Positions 4,796 to 45,851 of a DNA stretch of 64,000 nt are shown here, in pieces. Made by a program: the position numbers and the translations under genes. Source of the DNA: Haemophilus sputorum CCUG 13788 (GTDB lineage: Bacteria; Pseudomonadota; Gammaproteobacteria; Enterobacterales; Pasteurellaceae). Under the pieces are notes generated by a model that was not told the origin of the DNA, did not search any database, and saw nothing but the letters and a program-made list of their open reading frames with translations. Within the stretch, counting starts at the first letter, position 1; each line of letters starts with the position of its first letter. The stretch lies in the NCBI RefSeq assembly GCF_000238795.1, contig NZ_AFNK01000035.1, positions 1 to 64,000 on the forward strand, written 5' to 3'.

Positions 4796-5662
4796 ATGGA
4801 ATTAATTATTATCAGTGGGCGTTCAGGCTCAGGGAAATCTGTTGCAATACATGCATTAGAAGATATGGGATATTATTGCGTAGATAATATGCCACTTCCT
4901 CTTATTCCCCAACTAGCTGAATTTCTCGCTCAGACCAATAGCTCCGCGGTGATTAGTTTAGATATTCGTAATTTGCCGAATAATCCAAATGAAATTATCG
5001 ACTTACAAACTCAACTAGAACATTACAACACAAAAATTATCTTTTTAGATTGTGAACGTAATACCTTGATTCGCCGTTATAGCGATTCTCGCCGTTTACA
5101 TCCGCTTTCAACAAAAGATCTTTCATTAGAAAGCGCGATTGATTTAGAAGATTCATTATTAGATCCGCTTATTCATCAAGCTAATCATATTATTGACACT
5201 ACCCACCTTTCATCTCATGAATTAGCTGAAAGTTTACGGATGTTATTACAAGGTGCTAGCGTTAAGGAACTCAATATTGTGGTGGAATCTTTCGGCTTCA
5301 AATATGGCTTGCCGTTAGATGCCGACTATGTTTTTGATGTGCGTTTTCTGCCTAATCCGCATTGGAATCCTGAACTTCGTCCAATGACAGGGCTTGAACA
5401 GCCTGTGATTGATTTCCTTGAACGCCACACAGAAGTGCATCAATTTATCTACCATACTCGCAACTATTTAGAGTTATGGCTTCCGCAACTTGAACAAAAT
5501 AATCGTAGTTACTTAACGATTGCAATTGGTTGTACAGGCGGAAAACATCGTTCTGTATTTGTTGCCGAACAAATTGGGAAATACTTTGAAGCTAAAGGAA
5601 AAAAAGTCCAAATTCGCCATCGTAGTCTTGAAAAATATACAAAACAGCATAAGCCAGACTAA
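4796..5662 (+). CDS. rapZ: RNase adapter protein RapZ (YhbJ), P-loop NTPase
   Basis: N-terminal Walker [11 protein letters not shown]; length 288 aa; conserved position downstream of ptsN. Confidence 0.85.
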
Positions 5663-30330: not shown

Positions 30331-32001
30331 ATGGATAAGCCAGAAACCACTAAAAATGCGCTTGATAACCCCGCTTTACAACAAGCCTTCCTAAACGATC
30401 TAGATGAAAAACTTTGGTCATCTGCCGATAAACTGCGCCAGCAGCTTGATGCTGCCAATTACAAACACATCGTACTCGGCCTCATTTTCCTGAAATACAT
30501 CTCCGACAGCTTCACCCATCAGCAAGAAAAAATTCAGGCTGAACTGACCGATCCTGAAAACGCTCTCTATCTTGACCGCACTTTTTACGATACAGACGAA
30601 GAATATCAAGAAGCCTTAACCGTCGAACTGGAAAACCGCGACTACTACACCGCCGACAATGTGTTTTGGGTGCCGCAACAAGCCCGTTGGGACGAAATTA
30701 AAGCCGTTTCCATCTTAAACATCGGCGCAGAGCTGCCTTGGGGAGGGAAATTTTCCGGCGTGGCCAAACTGATTGACGATGCCTTCGATGCCATTGAAAA
30801 AGATAACGAAAAACTCAAAGGCGTACTCCAACGCATCAGCGGCTATGCCGTAAACGAAGACACCCTGCGCGGGCTGATTATCCTCTTCTCCGATACCAAC
30901 TTTACCCGCCCGACTTACAACGGCAAGTCCGTGCATTTGGGTGCAAAAGACATTCTCGGCCACGTTTACGAATACTTCCTCGGTCGCTTTGCCCAAGCCG
31001 AAGGCAAACGCGGCGGGCAATATTTCACGCCGAAATCCATTGTTTCCCTGATTGTCGAAATGCTCGAGCCATACTCCGGCCGCGTCTATGACCCGGCTAT
31101 GGGCAGCGGCGGCTTTTTCGTGCAAACCGAACGCTTTATCACCGCCCACCAAGGCAACATCAACAACGTGTCTATCTACGGGCAAGAATTCAACCCGACC
31201 ACATGGAAGCTCGCTGCGATGAATATGGCGATTCGTGGCATTGATTACGACTTCGGCAAACACAATGCTGACAGCTTCACCCAGCCGCAACACATCGACA
31301 AAAAGATGGATTTCATTATGGCAAACCCGCCATTCAACATCAGCGATTGGTGGAGCGAATCCCTAGCCGACGACCCACGTTGGGCATACGGCACGCCGCC
31401 CAAAGGCAACGCCAATTTCGCTTGGCTGCAACACATGATTTACCACCTCTCGCCAAACGGCAAAATGGCATTATTGCTGGCCAACGGCTCCATGAGCAGC
31501 CAAACCAACAACGAAGGCGAAATCCGCAAAGCCATCATCAATGCCGACTTGGTGGAATGTATGGTTGCCCTGCCCGGCCAGCTCTTCACCAATACCCAAA
31601 TCCCCGCCTGTATTTGGTTCTTAAACCGCAACAAAAAGCGCAAAGGCGAAGTGTTGTTTATCGATGCCCGCCAAATCGGCTATATGAAAGACCGCGTATT
31701 GCGCGATTTCACCTCTGACGACATCGCCAAAATTGCCAACACCCTCCACGCTTGGCAAAAATCAGACGGCTATGAAGACCAAGCCGCCTTCTGCAAATCC
31801 GCTACGTTAGAAGAGATTAAAGACAACGACTTCGTCCTCACACCGGGGCGCTATGTCGGCACCGCAGAACAAGAAGACGACGGCGTACCATTTGCAGAAA
31901 AAATGCAAAATCTGACCGCTCTTTTGAAGGAACAGTTTGCGAAGAGTGCGGAATTGGAAGCGGAGATTAAGAAGAATTTAGGGGGATTGGGTTATGAGTG
32001 A
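30331..32001 (+). CDS. hsdM: Type I restriction-modification system, methyltransferase subunit HsdM
   Basis: N-terminal HsdM domain (LWSSADKLRQQLDAANYKHIVLGLIFLKYISD). AdoMet motif DPAMGSGGF. Catalytic NPPF (IMANPPFN). 556 aa. GC content is clearly higher than the flanks. Confidence 0.9.
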   Translation: MDKPETTKNALDNPALQQAFLNDLDEKLWSSADKLRQQLDAANYKHIVLGLIFLKYISDSFTHQQEKIQAELTDPENALYLDRTFYDTDEEYQEALTVELENRDYYTADNVFWVPQQARWDEIKAVSILNIGAELPWGGKFSGVAKLIDDAFDAIEKDNEKLKGVLQRISGYAVNEDTLRGLIILFSDTNFTRPTYNGKSVHLGAKDILGHVYEYFLGRFAQAEGKRGGQYFTPKSIVSLIVEMLEPYSGRVYDPAMGSGGFFVQTERFITAHQGNINNVSIYGQEFNPTTWKLAAMNMAIRGIDYDFGKHNADSFTQPQHIDKKMDFIMANPPFNISDWWSESLADDPRWAYGTPPKGNANFAWLQHMIYHLSPNGKMALLLANGSMSSQTNNEGEIRKAIINADLVECMVALPGQLFTNTQIPACIWFLNRNKKRKGEVLFIDARQIGYMKDRVLRDFTSDDIAKIANTLHAWQKSDGYEDQAAFCKSATLEEIKDNDFVLTPGRYVGTAEQEDDGVPFAEKMQNLTALLKEQFAKSAELEAEIKKNLGGLGYE

Positions 32002-33346
32002 TAACTTTAAAACTGATACTTTAGATAGCTTATGTGAATTAATCGTGGATTGTCCACATTCAACTCCGACATGGACAACTTTCGGCTATGTAGTAATTAG
32101 AAATCAAAACATCACTGATGGTGTATTAGATTTATCATCACCGAGCTATACGGATTACTCAGGGTACAGAGATAGAACCAAAAGAGCCAGCCCACAAGAA
32201 AATGATATCGTAATCACCCGAGAAGCGCCGATGGGAAGAGTTTGCTTAATTCCTAAAGAACCAATCTGTTGTCTAGGGCAAAGACAAGTATTACTTCGTG
32301 CCGATAGAAACAAAATAAGTGCTGAATATCTCTACTGGTCTCTACGCTCCTCATTTGTTCAACGACAAATTCTAATAAATGAAGGAACAGGAGCAACCGT
32401 TAGTAATATGAGAATACCTGTGTTAAAAGCACTAGAAATTCCGCGGTTAGCATCCATTGAAATAGAAAATAAGAAAGCGAGAGATTTATCTAATATTCAA
32501 AATAAAATCCAACTCAACACCCAAATCAACCAAACCTTGGAACAAATCGCCCAAGCCCTGTTTAAAAGTTGGTTTGTCGATTTCGACCCCGTGCGTGCCA
32601 AAGTCCAAGCCCTTTCAGACGGCCTTAGCATTGAACAAGCAGAGCTGGCAGCCATGCAGGCAATCAGCGGAAAAACACCCGAAGAACTGACCGCACTTTC
32701 ACAAGCCGAGCCTGACCGCTACGCCGAACTAGCAGAAACCGCCAAAGCGTTTCCGTGTGAGATGGTGGAAGTTGATGGGGTTGAAATGCCAAAGGGGTGG
32801 GAATATTGCAGCTTTGGTGATGTTTCAGAATGCTTTGATAGTAAACGTATCCCTTTATCTAAACAACAACGAGAAAAGAGAAAAGGTAATATTCCTTATT
32901 ATGGTGCAACATCTGTTATGGATTATGTAGATGAAGCTATTTTTGATGATATTTATTTATTAGTTGGCGAAGATGGTTCCGTTTTAAAAGAAGATGGAAC
33001 GCCATTTACTCAATACATTTGGGGTAAATCTTGGGTAAACAACCATGCACATATCCTCAAAGGAAGGAATGGTATAAGTACTGAACACTTAATGATATTT
33101 ATTCAACAAACAAATATATCTGCTTATATCACAGGAGCTGTTCAGCTTAAGTTAAACCAAAAAAATATGAATAGTATTCCATTTTTAAGAGCTAATAATG
33201 CAATTAATGCTTTTTTTGCAGAATATATTGAATCTCTATATGCAAAAATCAGAAAAAATTTTGATGAGAATAAAGTATTAGAGGCAACTAGAGATTTATT
33301 ATTACCTAAATTATTGAGTGGGAATTTTTCAAATGGAAAAAACTAA
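31994..33346 (+). CDS. hsdS: Type I restriction-modification system, specificity subunit HsdS
   Basis: Start ATGAGTGA overlaps the hsdM stop. Two target-recognition domains, separated by a conserved central region (LEQIAQALFKSWFVDFDP...) and followed by a C-terminal conserved helix (LLLPKLLSGNF). The target-recognition domains are low-GC. The central region is high-GC and contains a Neisseria DUS. Confidence 0.85.
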   Translation: MSDNFKTDTLDSLCELIVDCPHSTPTWTTFGYVVIRNQNITDGVLDLSSPSYTDYSGYRDRTKRASPQENDIVITREAPMGRVCLIPKEPICCLGQRQVLLRADRNKISAEYLYWSLRSSFVQRQILINEGTGATVSNMRIPVLKALEIPRLASIEIENKKARDLSNIQNKIQLNTQINQTLEQIAQALFKSWFVDFDPVRAKVQALSDGLSIEQAELAAMQAISGKTPEELTALSQAEPDRYAELAETAKAFPCEMVEVDGVEMPKGWEYCSFGDVSECFDSKRIPLSKQQREKRKGNIPYYGATSVMDYVDEAIFDDIYLLVGEDGSVLKEDGTPFTQYIWGKSWVNNHAHILKGRNGISTEHLMIFIQQTNISAYITGAVQLKLNQKNMNSIPFLRANNAINAFFAEYIESLYAKIRKNFDENKVLEATRDLLLPKLLSGNFSNGKN

Positions 33347-34184
33347 TCTTATCGGGAATGATAGAGTCCCTGTTTTAGCAGAAATCAATACATTAGATGA
33401 ATTAAAATCCCTTTTATCTGCTCACTCTTATATATTTGATGAAGAAACGCCTGATATATATAAAAGCATACCATCAACAAGTGAAAGTTATACTATTTAC
33501 GCTCGATATTATCGCGGGCATAGCCGTGAAGATTATCGTTTGCAATCAACTTTAGAGCGATATTTAAAAAAGTTTGATAAACAAATTGATATTGAAAAAG
33601 AGTATGAAAAGCTACAAGGAAAATATCTTGAGCATTGCAAACGTATTCTGCTTAATCAAAGTATTGACGGCTATATTTCATTACCAAGTAACCTTGAAGA
33701 TAACGATATTTGGGCATTTGGACAGCATTATCAATTAAAAACGCCTTTATTAGACTGGACTAAATCTTTCTTTATTGCACTTTATTTTGCTTTTGAGAGT
33801 CATGAAGAAAATCAAAAAGAAAATCAATATCGTGTTATTTATGAATTAAATGAATTTTTTAATGTTGGTGAAAAGCTCATTATTGAACCAATAATTAAAA
33901 TTGGAAATCGTATCAATGCACAAAAAGGCGTTTTTACGAAGTTATCATCTAGGGAATTTGATGAGATTGCCAAAATGAATACAAACTTTGGTAATGGGTA
34001 TGTTTTTCATAGATTAAGTAAAATTCTTATTTCTAATGAATTAAGAAAAGATGTTTTAGCTTATCTTGCCTCAATTAATATTGATGCTTCAACAATTTAT
34101 CCTGATTTATTAGGAAAAATAAAACTTTGTGAAATTGGCATTGATAATGCGATTACAGAGATTAATTTAGAATATCAAGACTAG
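33333..34184 (+). CDS. FRG-domain-like protein of unknown function (~283 aa), embedded between hsdS and hsdR
   Basis: The ATG at 33333 is preceded by gagtggg and overlaps the last 14 nt of hsdS (alternative GTG at 33318). Low GC. Motifs YRGHSREDYRL, WAFGQHYQLKTPLLDWTKSFFIALYFA and NRINAQKGVFTKL correspond, by my recollection, to the FRG, QHYGLPTRLLDWT and R-x-x-aQ-x-G-x-F signatures of Pfam FRG-domain proteins. This was not searched. Confidence 0.5.
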   Translation: MEKTNLIGNDRVPVLAEINTLDELKSLLSAHSYIFDEETPDIYKSIPSTSESYTIYARYYRGHSREDYRLQSTLERYLKKFDKQIDIEKEYEKLQGKYLEHCKRILLNQSIDGYISLPSNLEDNDIWAFGQHYQLKTPLLDWTKSFFIALYFAFESHEENQKENQYRVIYELNEFFNVGEKLIIEPIIKIGNRINAQKGVFTKLSSREFDEIAKMNTNFGNGYVFHRLSKILISNELRKDVLAYLASINIDASTIYPDLLGKIKLCEIGIDNAITEINLEYQD

Positions 34185-34206
34185 GAAGAATAGCAGCAAT
34201 CCTCAC

Positions 34207-34215
34207 ACAAGCGGT
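34207..34215 (+). repeat. Apl-type USS (ACAAGCGGT) immediately downstream of the FRG-like gene
   Basis: Exact 9-mer followed by a T-run (acaagcggttattttttc). This is the only Pasteurellaceae USS inside the RM island. Confidence 0.6.
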
Positions 34216-34259
34216 TATTTTTTCAGAGCGTTTTGTAAATGATGAGGTTTATTTCACCT

Positions 34260-34447
34260 CTGCCAAATCTCCCCTCCCCCTCTTTGCTAAAGAGGGGATT
34301 GGATCGAAGGTAATTTAAATTTTGGCTTTCTACTTTAATATGCGATGAGAAATTGAAATTTTCTTAGATTAACAATGAGCCAGTTGCTGACAATTTACTC
34401 AAGGAATCCCCCTCTTTAGCAAAGAGGGGTTAGGGGAGATTTGGCAG
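34260..34447. mobile_element. Unclassified MITE-like element: two ~42-bp near-perfect inverted arms around ~104 bp
   Basis: Left arm ctgccaaatctcccctccccctctttgctaaagaggggatt (34260-34300). The reverse complement of the right arm (34405-34447) is ctgccaaatctcccctaacccctctttgctaaagagggggatt. Each arm holds an internal palindrome cccctcttt-gct-aaagagggg. No ORF inside. Confidence 0.4.
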
Positions 34448-34513
34448 TATCAATAAACGAAGAAATTAATCCATTAGCTCCCCAAAGACAGCAAATACAC
34501 AAAAGGACACTCT

Positions 34514-37500
34514 ATGCTCAACGAAAACGACATCGAACAACTTACCCTTCAACGCCTGCAATCCCTCGGTTGGGAATATCGCTACGGTAAAGACTTGCCT
34601 GTTCATGAAGGCGAGTTTGCACGTGGCGATTTAAGCGGTGTGGTCTTTATTGAGCAACTGCGAGAGGCAGTGCGTAAGCTTAATCCGCAACTGCCTGAAA
34701 GTGCGGTTGATTCGGTGGTGAAATCGGCGACGAAAAGCGATATTGGCGACTTGGTGGTGCGTAATCAGGCGTTTTATAAACTGTTGCGTGATGGCGTGCG
34801 GGTGGAATATCAGGCAAACGGTGAACAAAAAATCGAGATGGCGCGCTTGGTGGATTTTGAGCATGTGAAGAACAACCGCTTTATTGCCGTCAATCAGCTG
34901 GAAATCCGCAGCCGTAAAGGGGGGAAACGAATTCCCGATATTATCGGCTTTGTGAATGGCCTGCCCTTGGTGGTATTTGAGCTGAAAAATCCGTTGCGTG
35001 AATCGGCGGATTTGTTGCAGGCGTTTAATCAGTTTGAAACCTATAAAGATGAAATTGCCGAGCTGTTTGTTTACAACCAAGCCCTGATTATTTCAGACGG
35101 CATAGCCGCACGTTTGGGCTCGCTTTCGGCAGATTTCCAACGCTTTACGCCGTGGAAAGTGGTTGATGAAAAAAATAAAAGCGCGCGCTTATATTTTGAT
35201 GATGAATTACAAAGCCTGCTCAATGGCTTAATGAAGCCTGAGGATTTATTGAACTATATCCGCTATTTCGTCTTATTTGAGCGGGATTCCAGCGGTAAAA
35301 CCATTAAAAAAATCGCAGCGTACCATCAATATTACGGCGTAAATGAAGCGGTAGATTCCACGCTTTTTGCAACTTCAGAAAAAGGCGACCGCCGCATTGG
35401 CGTGATGTGGCATACGCAAGGTTCGGGTAAGTCAATTTCCATGTTGTTTTATGCCGGCAAACTGCTTGCGCAGCCTGAATTGAAAAATCCGACGATTGTG
35501 GTGGTTACCGACCGTAACGATTTGGACGGTCAGCTTTTCCAAACCTTTTCTTCAGGCAAAGATTTAATCAAACAAACGCCGCAACAAGTGGAAGACCGCG
35601 ATCAACTGCGCCAACTGCTCGCGCAAAATGAAGTCGGCGGCGTATTTTTTACTACGATTCAGAAATTCGCCCTAAATGAGGAAGAAAGCCGCTTCCCTGT
35701 TTTAAACGAGCGCAGCAATATTATTGTAATCAGCGATGAGGCACACCGCAGCCAATATGGCTTTACGCAAAAATTGCATAAAGGCAAGTTTCAAGCAGGC
35801 TACGCCCGCCATTTGCGCGATGCGCTGCCTAATGCTTCGTTTATCGGTTTTACCGGTACACCGATTAGCCTAGAAGATAAAGACACGCAAGATGTGTTCG
35901 GACGTTATGTGTCGATTTATGACTTACAAGATGCGGTGGAAGACGGCGCAACCGTGCCGATTGTGTATGAAGCGCGCCAAATCCGCTTAAACGAAAAAGA
36001 ACACGATGAGCTATTCAAAGAAATTGATGATTTGCTGGAAGAGGAGCAATCCCCTGCCCTGCGTTTGCAGGAAAAACTGCTGGGTTCGCAAGCCCGTCTG
36101 GCTGATTTAGCCGCGGATTTTGTGCAGCATTTTGCCAAACGCAATGAAGTCGTCGACAGCAAAGCGATGATGGTGGTTTCCAGTCGTCAGATTTGCGTGG
36201 ACTTATACAATGAAATCATCAAACTGCGCCCAGAATGGCATTCGGATAATATCAACGAAGGGGTGATTAAAATTGTGATGACGGGTTCTGCTTCCGATGC
36301 GCCGGAAATGCAGAAACACGTTTACAGTAAACAGGAAAAACAAACGCTGGAACGCCGCTTTAAAGACCCGAACGATCCGCTGAAAGTAGTGATTGTGCGC
36401 GATATGTGGCTGACGGGCTTTGATGCGCCTTGCTGTAATACGATGTATATCGACAAGCCGATGCAAGGGCATAACCTGATGCAGGCGATTGCTCGGGTTA
36501 ACCGTGTATTTCGCAATAAAAGCCGAGAAAACGGCGGCTTGATTGTGGATTATGTAGGCATTGCTGACAAGCTCAAAGAAGCGACCCAGCAATACACCAA
36601 TTCACAAGGCAAGGGCAAGCTGACTGATAACGTGATTGATGTGTTCTTTAAAATGAAAGAGCATTTAGAATTCGTCCGTAGCCTGTTTGCAACGCCGGTT
36701 GAAGGGAAAACCTTTGATGTTCAGACGGCCTTAGAAAAAGATAATCCGAATGATCTTCTGATGGCTATTCGTTTTGCCGCCAACCATATTTTTTGCCTCG
36801 ATCGATTACCGTTTGATGGCAAAGTGCACGAGCAACATTGGTTTAATAAAAAAGAAACCGAGCCACGTAAAAAAGCCTTTTTGAAAGCGGCGGGTTTGGT
36901 GAAAAAAGGCTATATGCTATGCGGCGCATTGGCTGAAGTTGAGCCATACAGCCAAGAAATTGCTTTTTATGATGCAGTACGCGCTATTCTCACGAAGAAC
37001 AAACAAAATGGTACGGGTTCTAATGAAAGACAGATTTTATTGAAAAAATTGGTCAATCAAGCCGTCTATTCCGAAGGCGTGATTGATTTGTTTGATCTGC
37101 TGGAAAAACCGCAGCCTCAAATCAATCTACTTTCTGAAGAGTTTTTGCAGACCATTAAAAACAGCCCGACTAAGAACTTATGGGTCAGCGCGGTGGAGCG
37201 TTATTTGGCAAGCGAAATCAAAGCCAAATCAGGCGCAAACCTCACCTTGCAAAAAGACTTCGAGCAGCGTTTAAAAGAAGCCCTAAATCAATACCACAAC
37301 CATAATTTAAGCGTGGTGGAAATTTTGGATGAGCTCTTCAAAATGAGCCAAGACTTCCAAGAACGCTTAGCTTTAGGTGAAAAGCTGGGGCTGAAAAAAG
37401 AAGAACTCGCTTTCTACGAAGCCCTCGCCCAAAACCAAAGCGCCCGAGAGCTGATGGGCGATGAAGTATTGAGCAAACTTGCCAAAGAAATTACCGATAC

Positions 37501-37678
37501 TTTAAGACGCTCAGTTACCATCGACTGGCAATACAAAGAAGGCGTACGTGCCAAAATGCGCATTCTCGTGAAACGAGCTTTACAGCGTTATAAATACCCG
37601 CCGGATAAACAGGAAGAAGCCGTGAGCTATGTGATTAAGCAAGCGGAGGAAATTGCGGAAGATCTCAGCCAACTTTAA
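34514..37678 (+). CDS. hsdR: Type I restriction-modification system, restriction subunit HsdR (helicase-nuclease)
   Basis: 1054 aa. Superfamily-2 helicase motifs (HTQGSGKS Walker A; DEAH box ISDEAHRSQYG). Typical N-terminal nuclease region. High GC, Neisseria-like codon usage. Contains two Neisseria DUS. Confidence 0.9.
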   Translation: MLNENDIEQLTLQRLQSLGWEYRYGKDLPVHEGEFARGDLSGVVFIEQLREAVRKLNPQLPESAVDSVVKSATKSDIGDLVVRNQAFYKLLRDGVRVEYQANGEQKIEMARLVDFEHVKNNRFIAVNQLEIRSRKGGKRIPDIIGFVNGLPLVVFELKNPLRESADLLQAFNQFETYKDEIAELFVYNQALIISDGIAARLGSLSADFQRFTPWKVVDEKNKSARLYFDDELQSLLNGLMKPEDLLNYIRYFVLFERDSSGKTIKKIAAYHQYYGVNEAVDSTLFATSEKGDRRIGVMWHTQGSGKSISMLFYAGKLLAQPELKNPTIVVVTDRNDLDGQLFQTFSSGKDLIKQTPQQVEDRDQLRQLLAQNEVGGVFFTTIQKFALNEEESRFPVLNERSNIIVISDEAHRSQYGFTQKLHKGKFQAGYARHLRDALPNASFIGFTGTPISLEDKDTQDVFGRYVSIYDLQDAVEDGATVPIVYEARQIRLNEKEHDELFKEIDDLLEEEQSPALRLQEKLLGSQARLADLAADFVQHFAKRNEVVDSKAMMVVSSRQICVDLYNEIIKLRPEWHSDNINEGVIKIVMTGSASDAPEMQKHVYSKQEKQTLERRFKDPNDPLKVVIVRDMWLTGFDAPCCNTMYIDKPMQGHNLMQAIARVNRVFRNKSRENGGLIVDYVGIADKLKEATQQYTNSQGKGKLTDNVIDVFFKMKEHLEFVRSLFATPVEGKTFDVQTALEKDNPNDLLMAIRFAANHIFCLDRLPFDGKVHEQHWFNKKETEPRKKAFLKAAGLVKKGYMLCGALAEVEPYSQEIAFYDAVRAILTKNKQNGTGSNERQILLKKLVNQAVYSEGVIDLFDLLEKPQPQINLLSEEFLQTIKNSPTKNLWVSAVERYLASEIKAKSGANLTLQKDFEQRLKEALNQYHNHNLSVVEILDELFKMSQDFQERLALGEKLGLKKEELAFYEALAQNQSARELMGDEVLSKLAKEITDTLRRSVTIDWQYKEGVRAKMRILVKRALQRYKYPPDKQEEAVSYVIKQAEEIAEDLSQL

Positions 37679-45297: not shown

Positions 45298-45653
45298 AAA
45301 GACTCCTTAGATTAAAAATTATCAAAGCTAGCCTATCAAATTCTCTAGGTTTGTTCAAAGAGAATCCTTTCATTTGATAGCTCATTTCAAATTGATTAAA
45401 AAATCATCAAACACTCCTTAAGATTAAATTACTTTAATTTTCAATAATTATTTAACATTTATTTGACATCACCATCTAAACTTGACACATTCATCTATAA
45501 ATCAACATATCTTTAGCATTTTACGCTATTTGAAATCACAATTTAATCTAGTAAACGTTTGCGCAAAGTGAAATACACTATTGACAATACTCCAAATGAG
45601 TTTAATATACACAGCGCAAACAAATTACAATGCAAACACAAACACACACAACA

Positions 45654-45701
45654 ATGGAAAAACAACTCTCACTCCGATTATCTCTGTTATCGTATTTTTG
45701 A
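45654..45701 (+). CDS. Candidate leu leader peptide (15 aa, MEKQLSLRLSLLSYF)
   Basis: Small ORF with 5 Leu codons in 15. A sigma70-like promoter lies ~70 nt upstream (ttgaca-16nt-taatat at ~45582-45609). A terminator hairpin lies ~50 nt downstream, ahead of leuA. Confidence 0.35.
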   Translation: MEKQLSLRLSLLSYF

Positions 45702-45750
45702 TGCGAGGATAAAGATTGTCTGAGAAATGAGTTCACTATCCACAACTTTC

Positions 45751-45777
45751 GCCCGCATCTCCATGCGGGCTTTTTTT
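45751..45777 (+). terminator. Candidate leu attenuator terminator
   Basis: gcccgcatctccatgcgggc followed by ttttttt, located between the leader ORF and the leuA start. Confidence 0.5.
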
Positions 45778-45851
45778 ATCTCTAAAAAGAGAATACAATC
45801 AAAGCGTTTGTGGCAAAACCATTCCCACACAACGCATACAGAGGACTGATT

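Follow-up and report, generated by a model that had tools for sequence, protein, structure and literature searches.

The 64,000-nucleotide stretch of DNA analysed here (the window), from Haemophilus sputorum CCUG 13788, contains a type I restriction-modification (RM) operon in which Pfam identified hsdM (30331–32001), hsdS (31994–33346), an FRG-domain accessory gene occupying a variable slot of the operon (33333–34184, plus strand) and hsdR, encoding a HindVIIP-type type I restriction subunit (34514–37678, plus strand). The subject of this work is an inverted-repeat element in the spacer between the FRG gene and hsdR. An earlier reading made without database searches (the sequence-only reading) had described it as an unclassified 188-bp element resembling a miniature inverted-repeat transposable element (MITE), and had placed the FRG gene upstream and hsdR downstream of it, which the Pfam results confirmed. 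No open reading frame of at least 50 amino acids was found in the spacer (34185–34513). The distance from the end of the 188-bp element (34447) to the hsdR ATG is 67 nt, and an Apl-type uptake signal, ACAAGCGGT (34207–34215, plus strand), is located between the FRG stop codon and the element. The G+C content changes at the element from 0.27–0.31 before it to 0.48–0.50 after it, in agreement with the low-GC/high-GC junction proposed for this position.

A repeat search of the window detected inverted arms at 34277–34297 and 34409–34429 (21 nt, 100% complementary) and at 34260–34280 and 34427–34447 (21 nt, 90%). These belong to two arms of about 42 nt (34260–34300 and 34405–34447) whose sole differences are a C in place of AA and one extra G, exactly as had been read by eye. 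Each arm contains its own palindrome, CCCCTCTTT-GCT/AGC-AAAGAGGGG, for which 0 matches were expected in shuffled sequences, and the core enclosed by the arms is 104 nt of non-coding DNA with 31.7% GC, so that the palindromes and the AT-rich core of about 104 bp were also borne out. A structured fold, which the same reading had suggested checking, was predicted for the region 34240–34470 on either strand, with a stem of about 43 bp and energies of −93.2 kcal/mol (z = −7.8) and −87.6 kcal/mol (z = −8.2). When the entire window was compared with Rfam, the element had no match at the gathering score, and a search of 34150–34560 with permissive settings returned only spurious, sub-threshold matches to plant miRNA precursor and snoRNA hairpins. 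The loop of the hairpin in the right arm is the exact point at which one Logan contig (SRR446555; locus L004, 1–94; L numbers denote fetched loci) ends.

Alignment of copies from 12 genomic contexts placed the whole repeat at 34234–34468, in the order outer module, triplex-motif arm, core, triplex-motif arm, outer module. The arms of the 188-bp description were therefore retained as given, but its extent was not, since the family unit runs to 34468 on the right and, in degenerate form, to about 34234 on the left. The left outer module (34234–34259, plus strand, TGTAAATGATGAGGTTTATTTCACCT) is degenerate, and homology with RM loci bearing other upstream genes begins here; L128, L227 and L125 have GAGGTTnATTTCACyT in common in this module, which in L227 reads TAATTTCTTACAAGGTTTATTTCACCT and starts at the stop codon of the upstream gene. 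The left arm consists of a tail (34260–34276), which on the minus strand reads GA-GGGGAGATTT-GGCAG, and an inner hairpin CCCCTCTTT-GCT-AAAGAGGGG (34277–34297; −8.6 kcal/mol when folded as single-stranded DNA). The AT-rich, non-coding core, designated type A, follows (34298–34408, about 32% GC), and then the right inner hairpin CCCCTCTTT-AGC-AAAGAGGGG (34409–34429) and the right arm tail (34430–34447, plus strand) with TTA, GGGGAGATTT and GGCAG. As single-stranded DNA the hairpins had predicted energies of −8.5 to −8.9 kcal/mol. The right outer module (34448–34468, plus strand) is intact, reads TATCAATAAACGAAGAAAT followed by TA, faces hsdR and ends 45 nt before its ATG.

Copies of the element were sought with a genome scan, which used the exact inner palindrome in one genome per species (at least 119 loci), and with a metagenome scan, which used the tail and the start of the hairpin (at least 120 loci). 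Pasteurellaceae contributed about a dozen loci in about 10 genomes among the genome-scan matches listed, from Ursidibacter, Glaesserella, Muribacter, Aggregatibacter and several Haemophilus species, and in the Pasteurellaceae loci the tail CTGCCAAATCTCCCC(TAA) precedes the palindrome. The Muribacter sequence, a divergent form with a GGCAA tail and no arm-terminus match, was left out of the family. The metagenome matches listed contained 188 arms, which formed 50 inward-facing pairs with lengths clustering at 159–172 and 188–202 bp; three single palindromes of 54–56 nt, many solo arms and some outward-facing arms were also present. Several of the loci share an assembly or sample, and two of them (L023 and L081) are both from one Haemophilus genome.

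Since the outer module is common to the copies, genomic contexts were defined by clustering more distal flanks, and at least 37 contexts were obtained. The supposition that the element might have no related copies anywhere, raised in the sequence-only reading as a point that would count against it, can thus be set aside. The largest contexts among the matches listed were upstream of hsdR (31 loci), upstream of glyS (24), upstream of ilvD (13) and between leuA and leuB (9), and an ABC transporter gene was found downstream of a further copy. All 37 contexts are intergenic. Copies are located mostly upstream of genes, and the element usually occupies most of the short spacer between the end of one gene and the start of the next.

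When one copy per context was aligned, a conserved terminus of about 63 nt was observed, consisting of TA followed by ATTTCTTCGTTAATTACTA-CTGCCAAATCTCCCCTA-CCCCTCTTTGCTAAAGAGGGG. It includes an extra outer module of about 21 nt at each end, terminating in ...AACGAAGAAAT-TA. Within the first 40 nt past the arm, 61 distinct outer-module sequences carry (t/a)AGTAATTAA-CGAAGAAAT-TA, and similarity stops right after the TA. Counted by side, the outer module pointed at the start of a nearby gene in 15 of 25 cases and at a gene end in 7 of 21, a weak trend that we did not use as evidence. Between contexts, identity was 91% for the arms, 67% for the outer module, 61% for the cores (57% for shuffled cores) and 56% for the flanks; within a context it was about 95% for the arms and 80–89% for the cores. 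The higher conservation of the arm relative to the core and the flanks indicates that the arm is the constrained unit, and the arm is the conserved, functional part of the element. Across the family the AT-rich core between the inverted motifs measures 80–118 nt. The element is thus a member of a non-coding inverted-repeat family of about 165–235 bp, intergenic in Haemophilus, Aggregatibacter, Glaesserella and Ursidibacter, with an architecture like that of MITEs and BIMEs.

A plasmid collection gave no match and a scan of viral contigs gave only 3 hits. The phage collection gave one match, and it was to a solitary triplex motif (CCCCCTCTTTGAAAAAGAGGGG-CTA-GGGGAGATTTTT) in the temperate Mannheimia phage vB_MhM_3927AP2 (L256 700–740, record 5603–5638), where the motif is intergenic and lies within another short inverted repeat (AATGCCCTT/AAGGGCATT). 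These near-empty scans indicate that the family is not associated with phages or plasmids. No description of the element was found in the literature on the arm sequences, on Pasteurellaceae MITEs and on intergenic dyads, and the supplementary tables of Holder et al. do not contain this motif sequence.

The arms share a common design, CCCCTCTTT-N3-AAAGAGGGG-TTA-GGGGAGATTT, in which a 9-bp pyrimidine/purine hairpin is followed by a loop of 2–3 nt and by a purine tract mirroring the purine stem. In the window the 34-mer arm motif is CCCCTCTTTAGCAAAGAGGGGTTAGGGGAGATTT. The tract GGGGAGATTT is the mirror image of AAAGAGGGG with T permitted opposite A, and an antiparallel fold-back, as derived from the sequence, would give nine G·G-C, A·A-T and T·A-T triads. 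The published ITxF class II definition (PMC4666352) comprises a pyrimidine stem of 6–15 nt, a loop of 1–6 nt, the complementary purine stem, a loop of 1–6 nt and a second G/A(/T) stem that mirrors the purine stem in antiparallel orientation, with at most one mismatch. When the 64-kb window was scanned for class II motifs with stems of at least 8 nt and at most one mismatch, exactly two were detected, and these were the two arms, one on each strand, both with 0 mismatches, stems of 8–9 nt and loops of 3 nt and 2–3 nt. In each, the tail supplies the second loop and the third (mirror) strand. No class II motif was present in 29 of the 30 shuffled windows, and the remaining one contained a single motif. 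By their geometry the arms are class II intrastrand triplex motifs of the BoxC/PIT/TMECO type, and the term "unclassified" no longer applies to them. The mirror repeat formed by hairpin and tail had been missed by the sequence-only reading. In vivo, the arms might extrude as a triplex or as a hairpin.

The mirror relation between stem and tail was also observed outside the Pasteurellaceae. Of 429 hairpins from non-Pasteurellaceae loci, 160 (37%) had a tail that mirrored their own stem perfectly (8/8), compared with 17 perfect mirrors in 2145 combinations (0.8%) when tails were swapped between different stems. The stems AAAGGGGG and AAAGGGAG, for example, each have their own matching tail. The same hairpin-plus-tail motif, nearly letter for letter, was found in Nitrospirota, Methylococcaceae, Acinetobacter, Deltaproteobacteria, Patescibacteria and others (among loci L005–L123; for example at L045 2038, L071 3851, L078 3510 and L093 1659). 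In these groups the motif often adjoins a second hairpin, CCTCCCTTT...AAAGGGAGG, which has its own matching mirror tail.

At the RM locus, the family layout is hsdM, hsdS, accessory gene, element and hsdR. The accessory slot holds FRG, Abi_C, HEPN_AbiU2 or unknown proteins of 199, 218, 298 and 303 amino acids, and each of these genes is followed by the element (window 33333–34184; L125 5290–5931; L252 2084–2719; L243, L142, L145, L110 and L163). A gene for a 368-amino-acid DUF4172-Fic protein lies between two copies of the repeat and behind three different accessory genes (L153 476–1582; L156, L163 and L175). Homology between loci with different accessory genes starts at the left edge of the element, which places the element at the 3′ boundary of the variable slot. 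Upstream of hsdR, the type A core is 91–99% identical in L128, L153, L163, L166 and L216, and in L110, L124 and L227 an unrelated core, type B, takes its place at this site. Tandem arrays of three or four arms with a period of about 145 nt were also seen upstream of hsdR (L156 757–1233, L217 3462–3938 and L110 3895–4190); the type B core in tandem-array loci holds a sequence close to the Apl-type uptake signal (GCAAGCGGTCG). More distant homologous operons carry no element, both in Eikenella, where the gap is 52 bp, and in A. actinomycetemcomitans, where the genes overlap.

The HsdR and PolA proteins encoded in the window are identical to those of H. sputorum HK 2154, and the locus is identical in the HK 2154 assembly and in two metagenome scaffolds. 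In other Haemophilus genomes, close HsdR homologues (87–98% identical) are encoded at different chromosomal sites, which indicates that the RM cassette is horizontally mobile, and the element was found upstream of hsdR at four different chromosomal sites. The window contains 24 copies of the Apl-type uptake sequence ACAAGCGGT, against 0.47 expected, and the host uses the Apl-type sequence. Of the four Hin-type uptake sequences (AAGTGCGGT) in the window, three are located inside hsdM, hsdS and hsdR (30575–30583, 32690–32698 and 34699–34707), which suggests that the high-GC RM genes were imported from a lineage with the Hin-type uptake signal.

Comparison of orthologous sites revealed two forms of the element. 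At two such sites some loci have a long arm-core-arm form and others, at the same place, a single palindrome of about 55 nt (L245 and L219 versus L162; L230 versus L141); the short form lacks precisely what separates the inner hairpins in the long one, as expected of a deletion between them. Because the inner hairpins are palindromes, each repeats the other in both direct and inverted orientation. The Ursidibacter copy upstream of hsdR has this short form. In H. influenzae only a 17-nt remnant, TTGCCAGTTCTCCCTTA, is present, followed by a deletion of about 215 bp. Most complete copies have TA at both ends. The sole clean pair of filled and empty sites is in the ureA–ureB spacer, where an outward-facing pair of triplex motifs of about 130 bp is present in L190 (about 1500–1640) and L247 and absent in L132 (about 7750) and L140 (about 6230). 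In the filled form AAAAT occurs at both junctions, a possible 5-bp duplication in very AT-rich DNA. A site downstream of leuA in the window was tried as an empty site and rejected, since it is not orthologous to the copies between leuA and leuB. Directly upstream of leuA in the window is a match to the Rfam family Arrc14 (Actinobacillus sRNA 14; 121.8 bits, 45618–45784), which may be the leu leader region.

Taken together, we consider it probable that the element is one copy of a dispersed BoxC-like intrastrand-triplex repeat family linked to local rearrangement, and not a dedicated hsdR switch. It most likely arrived with a horizontally moving HindVIIP-type RM cassette and did not evolve as an hsdR control site. 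Its position at the edge of the variable slot, where homology between loci breaks, fits a recombination joint and the published link of such motifs with instability. The proposal that a miniature element marks a recombination joint was therefore upheld in part, as a dispersed inverted repeat does sit where RM-locus homology breaks, but no target-site duplication was found for this inward-facing type. At the DNA level, the paired arms would act as a hot spot for slippage and recombination; the inner hairpins, as direct and inverted repeats, could mediate the collapse of the long form to the short one, and the repeat could serve as portable homology at which accessory-gene cassettes swap. At the RNA level, read-through transcription from hsdM, hsdS and the FRG gene would produce a hairpin with a perfect stem of about 43 bp. 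Such a hairpin would be a plausible RNase III substrate or roadblock and could partly uncouple hsdR from hsdMS.

A more far-reaching version, which we regard as doubtful, is that the triplex-motif repeats act as recombinase-independent boundaries. The defence-type accessory genes for FRG, Abi_C, AbiU2 and Fic would each travel with a 3′ copy of the repeat. Within a widely shared type I RM operon, they would replace one another between hsdS and hsdR when incoming DNA, taken up by natural transformation, recombines at the repeats, following an integron-like logic of gene plus palindrome. If this were true, the cross-phylum conservation of the 34-nt motif would denote a general, structure-driven recombination signal.

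Several observations weigh against a rearrangement-linked repeat family as the full account. The similarity of cores between contexts barely exceeds that of shuffled cores, and the common descent of the whole element rests on length clustering and a few core motifs in common. The 188-bp element is single-copy within the 64-kb window. For the inward-facing type, flank-to-flank comparison of all loci gave no clean empty site and no target-site duplication: what H. influenzae has is a remnant left by a deletion and not an empty site, and the RM locus of A. actinomycetemcomitans, like those of Eikenella and Pasteurella, is too diverged to define an insertion point. In vivo dimethyl sulfate footprinting in E. 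coli did not reveal a stable triplex, and purine-motif triplexes do not form in RNA (PMC4666352). Finally, the very high conservation of the arms across genera and the frequent position of copies 35–70 nt upstream of start codons, with the outer module toward the gene, hint at a selected function outside this account.

The alternative that survives best, although we judge it unlikely, is a classical MITE, that is, a deletion derivative of an IS630/Tc1-like insertion sequence mobilized in trans by a transposase acting on terminal inverted repeats of about 63 bp and duplicating TA, with the triplex geometry being incidental. The sharp ends ATTTCTTCG...CGAAGAAAT with TA on both sides in most complete copies, the length of the terminal inverted repeats (about 63 nt in complete copies), the small size with no open reading frame and the many genomic contexts are all features that such an element would have, and the related outward-facing pair in the ureA–ureB spacer shows a discrete presence/absence polymorphism. 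However, an empty site with a single TA was not found among the loci compared, and the TA may belong to the repeat itself. A partner insertion sequence was not seen in about 1 Mb of fetched loci, which is short of a genome-wide search. Recent bursts of transposition are argued against by the far stronger conservation of the arms than of the cores and by the persistence of orthologous copies in different species. The hairpin-plus-tail motif is also common to phyla in which a single shared transposase is not possible, and arms that stand alone, face outward in pairs or form tandem arrays are frequent.

We also weighed whether the element is a dedicated cis-regulatory site of hsdR, acting as a promoter, an operator or an attenuator/insulator that delays restriction relative to modification. 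Its placement 67 nt upstream of the hsdR ATG is repeated in 31 fetched loci, including the Ursidibacter short form; the outer module holds TTGGCA/TTGACA, usually toward a gene start and 35–70 nt from the arm; and a very stable RNA hairpin is predicted. Yet the same element stands before glyS, ilvD, the ABC transporter gene and other genes, and hsdR is kept in H. influenzae with only the 17-nt remnant and in the A. actinomycetemcomitans and Eikenella operons with none. The promoter scan predicted no sigma-70-like site on the hsdR strand. At the −10 position, 17 nt beyond TTGGCA, the sequence is AATTAA or AAATAA, which matches a −10 hexamer poorly. There is no terminator T-run, and the PIT elements of E. 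coli were reported to have neither promoter nor terminator activity (PMC4666352). An hsdR promoter, protein-binding site or attenuator, as the sequence-only reading had suggested, is on this evidence improbable.

Far less probable still is a reading of the arms as two ordinary intrinsic terminators lying between operon genes, or as a palindrome that arose there by chance. G+C-rich 9-bp hairpins in an intergenic position after a gene end would be compatible with terminators, but neither hairpin has a T-run (the tails are ATTGGATC or TTAGGGGAG), the intrinsic terminator scan reported neither arm and copies lie mostly upstream of genes, so the concern that the arms might be conserved only as ordinary terminator hairpins was not substantiated. 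Mirror-tail conservation and a dispersed family are not features of terminators, and a chance palindrome is excluded by the shuffles, the fold z-scores and the motif scan. The least probable explanation, an invertible phase-variable switch in which recombination between the 42-bp arms flips the core and toggles hsdR, draws on the long inverted arms around a short core beside an RM gene and on the frequent phase variation of RM systems, and was rejected. Every comparison of orthologous sites showed the core in the same orientation relative to the flanks (glyS 11/11, ilvD 4/4, hsdR type B 4/4, others 2/2, 1/1 and 1/1), with no orientation polymorphism, and no recombinase gene is adjacent.

Regarded as a triplex-motif repeat linked to local rearrangement, the element can now be named and defined, which matters because it will often be encountered in the annotation of Haemophilus and other Pasteurellaceae genomes and because it breaks short-read (de Bruijn) assemblies. 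It extends the BoxC/PIT/TM motif class to a composite element of about 200 bp in naturally competent bacteria of the respiratory tract, and provides a concrete case for the link between the motif and instability, in the form of defence-gene cassette swapping inside a type I RM operon. No new molecular mechanism is revealed by it.

Correia elements (CREE) and neisserial intergenic mosaic elements are repeats of Neisseria, and RNase III is known to process Correia RNA. The element resembles them as a non-coding inverted repeat of 100–200 bp in a naturally transformable mucosal pathogen, intergenic near gene starts, with TA ends, with transcripts that would form long hairpins and with a location at the boundaries of variable gene cassettes. 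In contrast to Correia elements, the arms here have their own hairpin and mirror tract, and neither an IHF site nor a promoter was identified. The 26-nt Correia terminus (TATAGTGGATTAA...) had no match in or near the element, as the sequence-only reading had maintained. REPINs are a concept that belongs with the REP and BIME elements. Like those elements, the arm is itself a short palindrome, an inverted doublet of arms makes a larger hairpin, and solo, doublet and tandem forms coexist. Unlike in REP elements, the 5′ tetranucleotide GTAG is not adjacent to the hairpin in the aligned arms, and whereas REP elements are lineage-specific, the arm motif is common to several phyla. RAYT transposases are associated with REP elements (Nunvar et al. 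2010, PMC2817692), and here a RAYT gene was not encountered, although no genome-wide search for one was made.

The closest comparison is with the BoxC/PIT/TMECO repeats of E. coli and other bacteria (Hoyne et al. 2000, as cited in Holder et al. 2015, NAR, PMC4666352). The isolated TMECO strand forms a stable triplex in vitro, and these repeats are always intergenic, frequently form inverted pairs and are tied to local genomic instability with deletions that preserve the hairpin (PMC4666352). The TMECO/BoxC consensus, CCCTCNCCC-N3-6-GGGNGAGGG-N3-GGGNGAGGG, had no match on either strand of the window, and the sequences of the blocks differ, with CCCCTCTTT/AAAGAGGGG/GGGGAGATTT here and CCCTCNCCC/GGGNGAGGG/GGGNGAGGG in TMECO. 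Also unlike BoxC/PIT/TMECO, the motif is built into a longer unit, to which GGCAG, an outer module of 21 nt and, between the inverted motifs, an AT-rich core of 80–118 nt belong, and its host is a member of the Pasteurellaceae. The order of parts is nevertheless the same, with a pyrimidine stem, a loop, a purine stem, a loop of 2–3 nt and a mirroring second purine tract in a motif of about 35 nt, and the second loop is TTA as in TMECO type A (PMC4666352). Strictly intergenic location, high conservation between copies, inverted pairs, deletions that leave the hairpin and variable loci are likewise features held in common. The element is thus a new Pasteurellaceae member, with a composite architecture and with additional MITE/BIME-like features, of the known BoxC-like class of intrastrand-triplex repeats.

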